In this document: piece after piece, positions 20,407 through 24,628 of the stretch
Position numbering within the stretch: position 1 is the first letter of the stretch
How the letters are laid out: every line of letters begins with the position of its first letter
UHGV virus genome: UHGV-0080837
Source of the DNA: a virus
DNA: 29,296 nt
Reading direction: 5' to 3' (one strand)
Program-made: the position numbers and the translations under genes
The notes under the pieces: generated by a model
Databases searched by the model: none
Seen by the model: only the letters and a program-made list of their open reading frames with translations
Told to the model about the DNA's origin: nothing

Positions 20407-20736
20407 ATGGGCTATAGCAGACTCGACGACAGGTACATTGAAGACGATATTTTTCGTGCGCTGTTTCACCAGGAAATGATTAAGCGGGTATCGGAGTATC
20501 ACTCTGATAATTTCCAGTACACGATAAAGATTGATGAAGTATATCGTTCAGACCTTGCAGCCTACAGGGCGTATGGCAATGCAGATTTGCGCTGGGTATT
20601 CCGGGTGCTGGTGGGCCATGAGTCAGAAATGGAAGAAATGCCCGCCGGGACCACGTTAACTCTTCCTGATGTGGCATGGCTGAGGAACAAGATCCGTGAT
20701 TACGCGAGCGCGGAACCGGAGATAGAAAATGCCTGA
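20407..20736 (+). CDS. hypothetical protein
   Basis: 109-aa ORF; its stop overlaps the next ATG (ATGCCTGA region at 20729-20736). Confidence 0.45.
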   Translation: MGYSRLDDRYIEDDIFRALFHQEMIKRVSEYHSDNFQYTIKIDEVYRSDLAAYRAYGNADLRWVFRVLVGHESEMEEMPAGTTLTLPDVAWLRNKIRDYASAEPEIENA

Positions 20737-21922
20737 TTTCCTGAAAAACCAGGACGGGCGCTATATCACTGACGGCCTGTCCTCTAAGGACTTCACGCGT
20801 TTATTCGACCTTATCAGGAAAGAACAAACCCGTAAGCGCCGACAAGCTCACCGGACGCTGACGCCAGGTAGACTGAGGAACAAATCCGCCGAAGATATTC
20901 TCAAGTTAGGGAAGAAAAAAGGCGGCACGTTCTTCACGCGAGACGACCTGAAAGGTTTCGAAAAGCTACGGAGTAAAACACGCGAAAAATATGACAGCAA
21001 GACGGCTGGCATCACATACGCCCAGCTGGTGGCATCCAGCCAGGCAATCGATATTAAGCGTGCAAATAACGCCGTGGATGACGGATCTGGTATCAAAAGA
21101 GCTACACCCGTATCTCTTCGCCACAACGTGATTAATATCCGCGTAGAAGCATCGGATATATCCGTCCACCAGCACCATATCGTCCGGATACGCTTTGAAG
21201 AATGGGATCAGATGGTCGATGACATCGCAGAAGACGATAAATCAGCTCTGAAAATCACTAAATCACTGTGCGCTGGGCGGGTGTCTTTCGATTGTGACTG
21301 TGGTCGTCATCAATACTGGTATCGTTACATCGCTACTGCGGGTAACTTTGCCCTGGCCCCGCCAAAAGAATACGCCTATCCAAAAGTTCGTAACCCTAAG
21401 CTACAAGGCGTCGCCTGTAAACACGTGATCCACTCAATGACGCGGTTACAGTCCGCTAGTTGGCAAATGAGTATTGCTCGTGCGTTACAAAAGGCCGCAA
21501 CGCAAATTGCATTTGGTGACGATCGCCGCCGTACAACCAAACACTTCTCAAAAGAAGACGAGAGGGAGTTTAATCGCAATCGCAACAGTAAAACAAACGT
21601 TGACGCTGCCAAGCGCGAATGGAGGCTCTATCAGAAGCGCCAGGCAGCTTTAAGTACAAAACTGGCAAAGGACAACGGCAAGATCGACAAGCTACGTGAC
21701 CAATTGACCAGGGCCAGAAAGTTGTCAGACGCACAGAAAAAACGGGCGGCTGCAAAAGAAGCGGCCTTGCAACGTGAGAAACAGAAAAACAAGGAGCTTC
21801 AGCAACGCCTTGCCGATCAGTTCGCACTGAAGAAGCAAGCGTTCATTGATGCGCTTGTCATGGCTGGAACGCCACAAGAACAGGCTGAGAAGATGTTTAT
21901 AGAGTACGTGAAAAAAGCATAA
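20729..21922 (+). CDS. SWIM-type zinc-finger protein with basic coiled-coil C-terminus
   Basis: CxC-Xn-CxH signature (FDCDCGRHQYWYRY ... GVACKHVIH), then a long K/R/Q/E/A-rich helical tail. Confidence 0.5.
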   Translation: MPDFLKNQDGRYITDGLSSKDFTRLFDLIRKEQTRKRRQAHRTLTPGRLRNKSAEDILKLGKKKGGTFFTRDDLKGFEKLRSKTREKYDSKTAGITYAQLVASSQAIDIKRANNAVDDGSGIKRATPVSLRHNVINIRVEASDISVHQHHIVRIRFEEWDQMVDDIAEDDKSALKITKSLCAGRVSFDCDCGRHQYWYRYIATAGNFALAPPKEYAYPKVRNPKLQGVACKHVIHSMTRLQSASWQMSIARALQKAATQIAFGDDRRRTTKHFSKEDEREFNRNRNSKTNVDAAKREWRLYQKRQAALSTKLAKDNGKIDKLRDQLTRARKLSDAQKKRAAAKEAALQREKQKNKELQQRLADQFALKKQAFIDALVMAGTPQEQAEKMFIEYVKKA

Positions 21923-21966
21923 ACCACACATAGCCTAGTAGTTTATGCTGGGCTTTCATTTTTTTG
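21916..21966 (+). terminator. hairpin plus T-run between convergent genes
   Basis: AGCATAAAC (21916-21924) pairs with GTTTATGCT (21941-21949), followed by GGGCTTTCATTTTTTT. Confidence 0.35.
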
Positions 21967-22684
21967 AAAGATCAATTCCAGTATTATCAAACAAACTGGA
22001 AATATCAGACACCAATTTATTAAAATGCTTGTCATCATTATAGAATGATGTGCTTTTTATAGCGACTATAAAATCACATAAATCTTGCGGAGATTCAATG
22101 CTAACCCCCTTATTTTTATATAGCTCAATAATACTGCCAACATCAGTATGCAATAGTTTTATCGCGCCACAAATTTCTCGCTGTTTCGCAACTAGGTCAT
22201 TAAGTTTATTTTCATTTTCATCTAAGATTTGTTTTGAATATTTAGCGTCATTGGTTGCTTGATTTAACTTTGTTTTCTTTCTTTGCAATTCTATTCTTTT
22301 ATCATAATCAGCAACTTCATCTAAATATCTTATTTCAGTGTATAATTTACTTGTTAGCTTAGATATCTTCAGTGTGAGAATAGGAGCTAACACAGATGCA
22401 AATACTCCATAAACAAATGGGATTACAACGTGATAAACCCACGGGGATACAATCCAATTATCAAAGAACGGGACATTGCCACCAACAAAAACAATAGATA
22501 ATGTATATAGGATGTCGTCCTTTGACTTTAATATAATTAAAATATCCTTCCAGTTAAAAATTAGAAAAGAAATGACAACATATGCAAAAACCTTGTTAAA
22601 TATTTTATCTTTTATTATTTCAGAAAATGATTTTAGTTCTGTTTCATTTATAGACGGATTATCTGTAACTTTTTCTGACATCAT
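21956..22684 (-). CDS. AT-rich moron: two-TM membrane protein with coiled-coil and C-terminal globular region, function unknown
   Basis: 242-aa ORF; sampled 60-nt lines are about 25-27% G+C against about 50% in flanking genes. Two hydrophobic helices (VFAYVVISFLIFNW... and VYHVVIPFVYGVFASVLAPILTL), then K/E/N/Q-rich heptad-like sequence. Confidence 0.5.
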   Translation of the reverse strand: MMSEKVTDNPSINETELKSFSEIIKDKIFNKVFAYVVISFLIFNWKDILIILKSKDDILYTLSIVFVGGNVPFFDNWIVSPWVYHVVIPFVYGVFASVLAPILTLKISKLTSKLYTEIRYLDEVADYDKRIELQRKKTKLNQATNDAKYSKQILDENENKLNDLVAKQREICGAIKLLHTDVGSIIELYKNKGVSIESPQDLCDFIVAIKSTSFYNDDKHFNKLVSDISSLFDNTGIDLSKK

Positions 22685-22705
22685 AGCTTATCCTGATTAC
22701 TTTTA

Positions 22706-22906
22706 TTATGGATAGTTAAAAGATTCAACAGGTGATGGTGGCTGAATTGGGTAATGTTTCTTCTCGTACTCCTCAATGAGAAGACTCATAACCTCAAAGA
22801 AATCACCTTCCGGAGTATTCATTTCCGGTTCGTTATCGAACATCGGTTCGACCGCACGCAGTGCGGCCTCATAATCTTGTTCTGTACGGATAGGTTTAAT
22901 GTTCAT
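22706..22906 (-). CDS. small acidic protein, possibly antitoxin-N-domain-like
   Basis: 66-aa ORF (IKPIRTEQDYEAALRAVEPMFDNEPEMNTPEGDFFEVMSLLIEEYEKKHYPI). Normal GC, weak RBS; the family assignment is from a low-confidence recollection. Confidence 0.35.
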   Translation of the reverse strand: MNIKPIRTEQDYEAALRAVEPMFDNEPEMNTPEGDFFEVMSLLIEEYEKKHYPIQPPSPVESFNYP

Positions 22907-22917
22907 TAATTACAAAG

Positions 22918-22947
22918 GAAAGCCCACTTGCTAAGTGGGCTTTTTGT
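22918..22947. terminator. hairpin plus T-run between higA and the small ORF
   Basis: GCCCAC TTGCTAA GTGGGC (22923-22941) with TTTTT on the + side and a U-rich tract on the - side. Confidence 0.4.
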
Positions 22948-22962
22948 ATGTGTTTTACTATA

Positions 22963-23301
22963 TCAGGCTGCTTTTTTATTCAGGTTCCGCTGAGAAATAA
23001 ATTTTTCAGCAGTATTGATACGACTTAACTCTTCCTGAACGCGCATATCATTTTCGACTTCCCACAGATCTACTGCGGTCTGAAGATTAATCCAAAAATC
23101 TACAGAAGTATCGAATGCTTTTGCCAGGCGATATGCCATATCCATCGTTAGCTTACGATTATTATTAACAAGAGCACTTACGGTGTTACGATGAACATGA
23201 AGTATTTCTGCTAACTCGTTGATCTTCAGCTCTAACGGCTCCAGGTATTCGTACAGAAGGATATCACCTACGGTCGTCGGTTTTCTGGTTGCCTGTTTCA
23301 T
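22963..23301 (-). CDS. higA: HigA-family antitoxin (XRE-type HTH)
   Basis: 112-aa ORF with the HigA-type HTH pattern (VGDILLYEYLEPLELKINELAEILHVHRNTVSALVNNNRKLTMDMAYRLAKAFDTSVDFWINLQ), immediately downstream of the toxin gene. Confidence 0.75.
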   Translation of the reverse strand: MKQATRKPTTVGDILLYEYLEPLELKINELAEILHVHRNTVSALVNNNRKLTMDMAYRLAKAFDTSVDFWINLQTAVDLWEVENDMRVQEELSRINTAEKFISQRNLNKKAA

Positions 23302-23371
23302 TTTTTGCCCTTACTAGCGTGCGTATTAAGTGGACTCTGGTCAGAACCCGGACCGTAACCGGGAATCTGTT

Positions 23372-23674
23372 TTAGTATTTGTGTGGGTCGAGATACAAGT
23401 CCTCGGCCTTTCCGTTAACCCACTTAAAAATTAACCTATATTGCTTATTCACCCTTACTGATGAATAGCCATTTAGCTTCCCTGACAGTTCCTCATACCG
23501 ATTACCTGGTGGTGATCTTAAATCCTTACAGGTAGTTGCGGCATTGATAATGTCCAACTTCCGTGACAATGTCATATGAATATCAGGAGGTATCTTTCTA
23601 TGTGGTGTTGAAAATTCAAAAAAATCATCAAGCCACGCATCCCTGAAATCCTTTATGTTAATTTTTTTGGTCAT
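23372..23674 (-). CDS. higB: HigB-like toxin (plasmid maintenance system killer protein family)
   Basis: 100-aa ORF with the family pattern DL.SPPGNRYEELSGKLNGYSSVRVNKQYRLIFKWVNG.AEDLYLDPHKY; toxin-first order typical of higBA. Confidence 0.75.
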   Translation of the reverse strand: MTKKINIKDFRDAWLDDFFEFSTPHRKIPPDIHMTLSRKLDIINAATTCKDLRSPPGNRYEELSGKLNGYSSVRVNKQYRLIFKWVNGKAEDLYLDPHKY

Positions 23675-23719
23675 TAGTCATTTGATCCTCCGTGATGATT
23701 ACCGAATGCCATAACTATA

Positions 23720-23747
23720 GCGCACTGTTGCACTGTGCGCAAGTGCA
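23720..23747. promoter_or_regulatory. overlapping palindromes in the higBA promoter region (candidate HigA operator)
   Basis: GCGCAC (23720-23725) / GTGCGC (23735-23740) and TGCACT (23729-23734) / AGTGCA (23742-23747), about 50 nt upstream of the higB start. Confidence 0.4.
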
Positions 23748-23836
23748 TTTTATGGATTCCCCCTCCTTCATCCAAAATCACAATCTCCCGAAAATCTTCC
23801 TTTCGATACCTGACAGATCGACCTTTGAGGATGCTT

Positions 23837-24628
23837 ATGGGCCGTTTTGACGAATGGTTTGCTGACGATGCAAACCTGGCAAGTAAGGAGTCAGAACATG
23901 ACAGCACGCAGAGAGAAACGCCAGCGCCGATTGAAGCGAATGCAGGAGGTGCGCCGGAACATGGCAATACCGGTTCGGATTCATTCAGCATTCTGGAAGA
24001 GCAACCCGCCGCCAAAGCTGATAGCCATGATAATTTTGCTGATAGCAACGCTGGCCTTACTCCGGATGCTGCCGAATCAGATATAGCCATACTTCCACCT
24101 TCCCTGGCTGGCAGAGAACCAACTCCACAGCTAAAAGCACGCTATAACGGGCATAAAGCCTTTAATGACCAAATCCGCGCAGACTGGATGCTGATTATTG
24201 AATCCAGCCCAGACGCGTTTCAGGCTCTCTTATATCGACCAGATGTTGGCACATATGGGGTAGTCAGCGACGAAACAGGAGAAGAGTCATTCACTGAACT
24301 GGATAACAACCAACGCGAACTGACTTACCAGGAACCTGAAATCGTTTATGTGCTGGATAACCCTGACGGGCGTGACTCTTTCCATGCGATTGACGCAGAC
24401 GGTGAGCAGGATGGCTTAACCGATGATGTTCTGATTCTGCGTATTGCAGCAAATAACGTCCCCGTCGGCTCAATTCTTGAATGGAATGAAGAGATGGTAA
24501 ACGGCGTAGCCCGCCGCTGGTGGTACGTGCACCGTATTTTTAGCTACGGCACACAGCATGTTGGTTCGCTTTACTACTGCATACCTGCCAGGAATTTTGA
24601 TACGACTCAAAACGGAGTGATCGAATGA
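23837..24628 (+). CDS. hypothetical acidic protein, first gene of a rightward morphogenesis-type operon
   Basis: Start taken at the ATG at 23837 after GAGGA, inside track ORF 23735..24628. Acidic and Ala/Pro-rich N-terminal half; stop overlaps the next ATG. Confidence 0.45.
   Translation: MGRFDEWFADDANLASKESEHDSTQRETPAPIEANAGGAPEHGNTGSDSFSILEEQPAAKADSHDNFADSNAGLTPDAAESDIAILPPSLAGREPTPQLKARYNGHKAFNDQIRADWMLIIESSPDAFQALLYRPDVGTYGVVSDETGEESFTELDNNQRELTYQEPEIVYVLDNPDGRDSFHAIDADGEQDGLTDDVLILRIAANNVPVGSILEWNEEMVNGVARRWWYVHRIFSYGTQHVGSLYYCIPARNFDTTQNGVIE

Follow-up and report, generated by a model that had tools for sequence, protein, structure and literature searches.

The locus described here raises the question of what a gene of markedly low G+C content is doing between two tail genes of a virus, on the strand opposite to theirs. 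The gene, which encodes a protein of 242 amino acids (aa), lies in the UHGV virus genome UHGV-0080837, analysed over a stretch of 29,296 nucleotides (the window; coordinates of features are collected in Table 1). Over 4.2 kb, the window shares 94% identity with phage D6; to 97 of the 122 plasmids that match it (from E. coli, Salmonella and Shigella; ~75–96 kb where listed) it is 95–99.6% identical, and by these comparisons it is a D6-like phage-plasmid of the P1 family. In D6, the homologous gene is orf73, which carries the annotation 'hypothetical' and whose product shares 58% amino acid identity. In P1, genes 26-25-7-24-6-5 form an unbroken series in which gene 7 begins 3 nt past gene 25; as these two genes abut in P1, D6-like elements therefore carry an antisense insert of ~1.8 kb in the late tail operon. 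The insert in the window consists of higB, higA, a hairpin, an open reading frame (ORF) of 66 aa and the gene in question, in this order. The answer that we favour, with about an even chance of being correct, is that this is an autonomous, exchanged conflict gene, whose product would act as a single-protein membrane effector of superinfection exclusion or abortive infection (Abi), a function suggested by its context.

Among D6-like elements of E. coli and Salmonella, the membrane protein falls into ~9–10 allele classes sharing 36–68% identity with each other, while gene 25, gene 7 and a 119-aa HigA of those same elements are 96–100% identical. Sliding comparison of the DNA gives identities of 0.45–0.8 within ~21900–22750 of the window and of at least 0.96 on either side; the divergent block comprises the ORF and a few tens of bases. 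All alleles and relatives are AT-rich, with G+C fractions of 0.29–0.40. A check for homologues in the same slot, suggested in an earlier note on this DNA, found the gene between genes 7 and 25 in 23 of 23 IMG/VR loci, and the PLSDB plasmids examined carry the cassette at the same place. The slot is also occupied where gene 25 is only 82% (L004, L013) or 73% (L045) identical; P1, at 57%, is without it. Because the slot is occupied across diverged lineages and low G+C is common to all of the family, the interpretation of the gene as a recent foreign acquisition in that note is not supported. Judged by this distribution, occupancy of the slot is old, and the recent event is the replacement of one allele by another, not acquisition. 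One D6-like contig (L041, 3263–5058) contains a 119-aa HigA gene without its N-terminal half, the opposite of the deletion seen in the window, and ~0.8 kb of extra DNA between the membrane-protein gene and gene 25.

The ORF itself is a real, maintained coding gene. It starts with ATG-ATG and has an AGGA Shine–Dalgarno sequence 6 nt upstream. Pairwise ratios of non-synonymous to synonymous substitution rates (dN/dS) are ~0.2–0.8 within the window's allele class, compared to 0.03–0.23 for the flanking tail genes, showing that the gene is under purifying selection but less constrained than the structural genes. Of 5426 complete E. coli genomes, 51 contain the window allele, in each case on a plasmid of ~90 kb. 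The existence of truncated alleles (209 aa in L038, 147 aa in L043) and of Klebsiella copies cut by IS903B could be taken to mean that the ORF arose by chance in AT-rich junk DNA or is decaying there. Such a reading is scarcely credible, because dN/dS values below 1 show purifying selection; moreover, all eight distinct DNA alleles of the window type are intact, the protein cluster holds 535 member sequences, and 42 representatives share motifs.

With a G+C content of 29.5% (39/26/23% at the three codon positions), as against 47.3% for the whole window, the gene is the lowest in G+C among all 729-bp segments, only 0.05% of which are equally low, and it lies within the sole stretch below 36% G+C (21732–23258). 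The compositional anomaly reported earlier is confirmed by this recalculation, although the figure then given (25–27%, half that of the neighbours) was slightly too low, the true ratio being ~0.6. The gene has two of the three hallmarks of a moron, namely insertion between genes that are adjacent in the related phage P1 and a composition distinct from its surroundings; as to the third, a promoter and terminator belonging to the gene itself, no convincing promoter was seen, and the hairpin at 21932–21954 has its T-run on the other strand. Classical morons and the AT-rich genes of P2 (old, tin, Z/fun, orf30) are likewise compositionally deviant inserts between adjacent genes; PADLOC and Pfam, as well as a search of 50,697 phage records in which only D6 was hit, gave no sign of homology to old, tin or fun.

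The hydropathy profile of the protein shows two strong hydrophobic segments (~32–52 and 83–106) and a short one (58–69). An AlphaFold2 (AF2) model with a mean predicted local distance difference test score (pLDDT) of 79 and a predicted template modelling score (pTM) of 0.37 contains helices at residues 13–28, 31–43, 45–53 and 58–65, an uninterrupted helix at 81–192, and two further helices at 199–209 and 219–234. In this model, the second transmembrane (TM) segment runs straight into a stalk, forming one helix up to residue 192, and a continuous heptad frame covers ~129–190 of the stalk. Thus, the two TM helices and the coiled coil recognised in the earlier note hold, but the C-terminal region is helical and spans ~50 aa instead of the ~80 aa assigned to it. 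The net charge is +2 just before TM1 and +3 just after TM2, and the loop between the two helices is neutral or negative. Because of these flanking charges, the positive-inside rule suggests an N-in/C-in topology, with the stalk and the C-domain in the cytoplasm.

The protein matches PHROG 8191, whose function is not annotated, over its full length (E=8.5e-122; residues 1–242 on profile positions 1–242), and has no family match in Pfam, NCBIfam or PADLOC. When E-values up to 10 were admitted, Pfam returned only two coiled-coil families (E ~0.025) and PADLOC none, and a comparison of 28 aligned members with Pfam, NCBIfam and PADLOC gave coiled-coil noise only (SMC, Rad50, LmuB, JetC). The earlier impression of an unrecognised family is borne out, as no curated family matches. 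HMMER, run exhaustively against 1.84 billion cluster representatives, retrieved 42 relatives at E<1e-3. A full-family profile found at least 20 proteins among the 8000 candidates that were scored, a profile of the N-terminal domain added little new, a scan of genome contigs gave two loci, and, of 50,697 sequenced phage records, only D6 contains a family member.

Conservation, read from alignments of 28 and 23 sequences, is concentrated in an N-terminal membrane domain with an IKD(K/R)LxN motif. Asn44 and Pro89 are invariant across the family, and Trp45, Ser54 and Pro101 nearly so; mean pairwise identity is 53% in the membrane domain, 25% in the stalk and 29% in the C-domain. Family members are 200–320 aa long and share the arrangement of two TM helices, a long helical stalk and a small C-terminal helical domain. 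The members for which an organism is named are all from Enterobacterales and all annotated as hypothetical, and on the sequences collected here this is a real family confined to mobile elements of the Enterobacterales. Among possible Rosetta-stone fusions, the longer members P0054 and P0056 (392–394 aa) merely extend the helical C-terminus, and P0043 was rejected as a spurious repeat protein. The literature examined on D6, on D6-like plasmids, on multidomain RelE/ParE toxins and on phage-plasmid surveys does not mention the gene. The protein family and its architecture are undescribed; the proposed ecological role is a familiar one, and the multi-allelic slot in a tail operon is unusual.

The position of the gene between tail genes, together with the likeness of a two-TM N-in/C-in hairpin to the topology of class II holins, could also indicate that the protein serves the life cycle of the phage-plasmid itself, be it as a holin, antiholin or lysis regulator, as a tail-assembly or virion factor, or as a tether for plasmid maintenance. 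A role of this kind is very improbable. The gene runs against the late operon and is missing in P1, relatives have been found in non-phage islands too, and alleles of 36% identity in backbones that are ~98% identical would be hard to explain if the protein were co-adapted to a partner in structure or lysis. Searches by sequence and by fold gave no match to a family of holins, virion proteins or partition proteins: comparison of the AF2 model gave no significant structural match in PDB or BFVD, the best-scoring 'holin' entry of BFVD having E=5.2, and in particular none to a virion or housekeeping protein, a match to which the earlier note had named as a result that would speak against its proposal. 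The specific proposal of a holin was rejected; there is no holin annotation in Pfam or PHROG, and the flanking genes encode tail and toxin–antitoxin (TA) proteins, not endolysins or spanins.

In different elements, the gene is preceded by three different pairs of RelE-superfamily toxins and helix–turn–helix (HTH) antitoxins: PF05015 HigB with HigA, PF09907 HigB with the 119-aa HigA, and a 103-aa HigB with a 139-aa HigA or a ParE toxin with an HTH_3 protein. As it directly follows these pairs on the same strand in phage-plasmids, Klebsiella plasmids and Leclercia, it might be the obligatory third component of a tripartite HigBA-type TA or defence module (a membrane anchor, a sensor or a second toxin), similar to PD-lambda-2 or toxin–antitoxin–chaperone (TAC) modules. 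Such a module would also fit the matches of the L003-type HigB and HigA to PD-lambda-2 A and B, and the location of the island gene 11–16 nt behind another RNase-type protein, a DUF4145/HEPN protein resembling PD-T7-4. We nevertheless consider it quite unlikely. The same allele is found behind different toxins, as in L020 and L035, whose membrane alleles are 99% identical. In L037, sliding DNA comparison indicates that the TA block was exchanged independently of the membrane-gene block. Between genes 7 and 25 of the L045/L046 lineage, the gene stands alone, and no TA genes accompany it in P2-like, Pantoea and other contexts. A hairpin with a T-run separates the antitoxin from the gene in D6-type, L004 and L013 loci. 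The gene for the 119-aa HigA is decaying (the C-terminal part is gone in the window type, the N-terminal part in L041), and the membrane-protein gene stays intact; the window itself retains a 66-aa stump of the antitoxin partner and lacks the cognate toxin, but the membrane-protein gene is intact and under purifying selection. Finally, the Leclercia locus is itself a fragment of a phage-plasmid. Because of the differing toxins, independent block exchange, lone occupancy, intervening hairpins and HigA decay, the membrane-protein gene is, as far as these loci tell, a module separate from the TA genes, and the link to higBA implied in the earlier note reduces to adjacency without functional dependence. 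The TA genes form a second, independently replaceable cassette (22900–23800 in the window; seen in L037, L039, L043, L044, L003, L020 and L021), in which the PF05015 HigB and HigA of the window and D6 are swapped for a PF09907 HigB in other elements and for the 103-aa HigB with the 139-aa HigA, or the ParE toxin with the HTH_3 protein, in yet others.

PD-lambda-2 is a validated three-gene Abi system consisting of a HigB-like protein, a HigA–peptidase fusion and a P4-antitoxin-like protein (Vassallo et al. 2022; PMC9519451). The PF09907 HigB matches PD-Lambda-2_A (1e-41) and the 119-aa HigA matches PD-Lambda-2_B over positions 1–119 of 402 (7e-43); in L003-type elements a third gene follows the HigBA pair, as in PD-lambda-2. 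However, the HigB of the window is of the PF05015 type without a PADLOC match, the PF09907 toxin being present only in other elements (L003, L037 and similar), the peptidase-fused HigA of ~400 aa is absent, and the membrane protein is unrelated to PD-lambda-2C. Membership was thus tested on all three defining components and rejected. The PF09907 HigB and 119-aa HigA pair (L003, 2273–2938; also L020, L021 and L037) is without the peptidase domain and without the third gene of that system. A TAC module was rejected as well, since the protein has no SecB or other Pfam domain and a hairpin with a T-run lies between antitoxin and gene in related loci.

A trio of HigB, the 139-aa HigA and the membrane-protein gene is found on large IncFIB plasmids of Klebsiella, where the membrane-protein gene is cut by IS903B after ~138 aa (L005, 3153–5377; NZ_CP132738). 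In ~50 other Klebsiella plasmids, the listed matches span the N-terminal half of the query or less. The Klebsiella plasmid version looks like a widely disseminated dead copy. The same trio occurs in the Leclercia chromosome, in the phage-plasmid fragment mentioned above.

More distant relatives occupy a range of other accessory positions. In E. coli and Citrobacter, chromosomal islands next to yciI/cls carry a family member at the border of a serine-recombinase element. Ahead of it, at a distance of 11–16 nt, there is a gene for a DUF4145 protein with a match to PD-T7-4 (E=5e-13), a single-gene defence of the Zn-finger-HEPN type, or one for an unrelated 221-aa protein, or nothing. Seven loci (L008–L012, L014 and L016) lie beside yciI-kch-cls in a small serine-recombinase island, which looks like a cargo hotspot with two positions. 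In P2-like prophages, a relative directly follows gpD, gpU and the tape measure gene (L047) or, in Klebsiella, lies antisense between gpS and gpV (L050–52); we take the gpS–gpV and post-gpD sites to be the P2 orf30 and tin/old accessory positions. In L050 (5001–6576), the adjoining gene encodes a 247-aa protein whose sole match is a weak one to HNH_5 (E=7e-4). Other relatives lie near a HEC-04-like ABC ATPase and a C5 methyltransferase (L048), near a PDC-S06 protein (L053; E=2.6e-255), near a WYL regulator (L055), or downstream of a UmuC-like gene and ahead of AlpA and an antirepressor (L049). With relatives in prophage hotspots or beside known or candidate defence genes in at least six independent contexts, the defence or exclusion function proposed in the earlier note gains contextual support.

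The same contexts also allow that the gene is a lysogenic-conversion or selfish cargo gene unrelated to defence, such as one for an envelope or stress-related membrane protein, for a protein that modulates host physiology or colonisation, or for a factor in competition between plasmids. Prophage hotspots hold cargo of many sorts, the family occurs only in host-associated Enterobacterales, no defence model matches, and AT-rich genes, probably silenced by H-NS, are typical of many accessory traits. A cargo role outside defence is nonetheless unlikely, if a serious contender, as the recurrent proximity to defence or candidate-defence genes in independent contexts and the extreme turnover of alleles in a fixed slot are more typical of conflict genes.

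If the exclusion or Abi function is correct, the moron, carried antisense in the late tail operon, would be expressed from the plasmid-prophage state. Its product would insert into the inner membrane as an N-in/C-in helical hairpin, the second helix of which would continue as a cytoplasmic coiled-coil stalk, probably oligomerising, and end in the small variable helical domain. The variable stalk and C-domain might recognise a component or a consequence of an incoming phage, while the conserved membrane domain would be the effector that permeabilises or depolarises the membrane or blocks DNA entry; divergent alleles would then correspond to different specificities. Topology, oligomerisation, expression in the lysogen and the functional claim are all inferred. 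A more far-reaching version, which we put forward only tentatively and regard as somewhat doubtful, holds that this is an unrecognised single-protein anti-phage or exclusion system, that its specificity is set by the exchanged coiled-coil/C-terminal sensor, and that the slot is the main immune locus of D6-like phage-plasmids.

Several points weigh against the proposed effector function. Pfam and PADLOC revealed no homology to any validated exclusion or Abi protein. Guilt by association with hotspots is weak because hotspots also hold non-defence cargo. Coiled coils diverge fast even without diversifying selection, and dN/dS gave no sign of positive selection within the window allele class. Topology and oligomeric state are based on simple rules and on the monomer model with its pTM of 0.37. 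Promoter-like sites near the gene are about as frequent (8) as in shuffled sequences (7.2), and no convincing -35/-10 pair was found upstream.

Among known systems, SieB of lambda and P22, Imm of T4, RexB of lambda and gp15 of HK97 are inner-membrane exclusion or Abi proteins of prophages. The protein described here resembles them in being a single small membrane protein of a temperate phage, encoded in an accessory slot by a non-essential gene of foreign composition, with an N-terminal TM region and a predicted cytoplasmic remainder. It differs from SieB, Imm and RexB in that no Pfam match to them at E up to 10 and no fold match was obtained; curated models of AbiZ and other Abi families likewise gave no significant match. 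To our knowledge, neither a coiled-coil stalk of ~85 residues nor a multi-allelic slot has been described for SieB, Imm, RexB or gp15. With the two-TM (2TM) effectors of CBASS and the PycTM protein of Pycsar, it would share the logic of a conserved N-terminal 2TM module that disrupts the membrane, combined with a cytoplasmic sensing domain. A marginal match to the PADLOC model 'Effector 2TM' (E=4e-4) was seen in one of 28 members and may be compositional. Unlike those effectors, the protein has neither a cyclase or other signal-generating partner nor a nucleotide-binding domain, and the window protein itself is without a PADLOC match. D6-like phage-plasmids have been reported to carry recognised defence genes almost never, with a complete system in a single one (bioRxiv 10.1101/2025.09.12.675607).

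The remaining features of the insert and its flanks are listed in Table 1. The 66-aa ORF upstream of the membrane-protein gene is 89% identical to the N-terminus of D6 orf72 (119 aa) and matches PADLOC PD-Lambda-2_B at positions 1–65 (E=2.5e-16). In comparison with D6, ~200 bp are absent from the window, namely the HTH half of orf72 and the spacer that follows it. The remnant is present in every window-type IMG/VR locus examined, and it shows almost no non-synonymous change (none in five comparisons, one change in two). It may act as an orphan anti-addiction peptide that neutralises a toxin, or it may simply be a scar of recombination.

D6-type alleles have a 62-nt spacer containing a hairpin and then a T-run upstream of the membrane-protein gene. 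This conserved hairpin, GGCGGTC-tggat-GACCGC with a T-run, directly follows the gene for the 119-aa HigA and lies ~35 nt before the membrane-gene start; it was located, for example, at ~6190–6245 in L001 and ~2940–3000 in L003. In the window, no terminator lies between the membrane-protein gene and the upstream remnant ORF. The 200-bp deletion removed the D6-type hairpin, so that expression of the membrane-protein gene may rise. The hairpin at the 3' end of the gene has its T-run on the strand opposite to it.

The earlier note had placed the gene in a variable slot between the operon of a SWIM protein and the tail operon, next to a TA pair. The slot and the TA neighbour stand, but the SWIM label of the left-flank protein has no Pfam support, the gene-25 homologue being without a match at E<=0.01. 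It does contain a Cys-x-Cys ... Cys-x-His pattern (FDCDCGRH...ACKH). For the gene-7 homologue, two starts come into question, a GTG at 23735 giving 297 aa and an ATG at 23837, as annotated in D6, giving 263 aa. A 138-aa ORF on the minus strand (23674–24090) overlaps its 5' region and is probably spurious.

Table 1. Features of the tail-operon insert and its flanks in the window
Feature	Coordinates	Strand	Basis or remark
Gene for a protein with 2-TM hairpin, coiled-coil stalk and small C-terminal helical domain; 242 aa; PHROG 8191 member	21956..22684	-	ORF and translation
Replaceable divergent DNA block (allele cassette)	21900..22750		Sliding identity versus L031, L032, L034, L037
Hairpin with T-run, end of the gene 26-25 transcript	21932..21954	+	Convergent, immediately beside the 3' end of the membrane-protein gene
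Spacer with AGGA ribosome-binding site, 21 nt	22685..22705	-	Sequence; comparison of upstream regions
66-aa remnant of a 119-aa YgjM-type HigA	22706..22906	-	N-terminal half kept, HTH half deleted
G+C-rich hairpin between higA and the remnant ORF	22917..22945		Terminator-like on both strands, clear T-run on the + strand only
higA antitoxin, 112 aa, HTH_3	22963..23301	-	Pfam 7e-11; D6 orf71
higB toxin, 100 aa, PF05015 HigB-like, RelE-fold	23372..23674	-	Pfam 4.4e-35; D6 orf70
Left flank: homologue of P1 tail gene 25	20729..21922	+	57% to P1 gp25, 98% to D6 orf74
Right flank: homologue of P1 tail gene 7	23837..24628	+	D6 orf69, annotated as similar to P1 gene 7

D6-like phage-plasmids occur widely among clinical E. 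coli, Shigella and Salmonella, and the locus is the one place where otherwise near-identical elements differ by the replacement of a whole gene allele. Even without an exclusion or Abi phenotype, it would be a clear case of a cassette that turns over within a late operon. If the proposed function is true, the gene would help to explain competition among co-circulating phage-plasmids and prophages, the family would represent a new class of membrane effectors for PADLOC and DefenseFinder, and its roughly ten allele classes would offer a natural series for mapping the specificity of the coiled-coil sensor.

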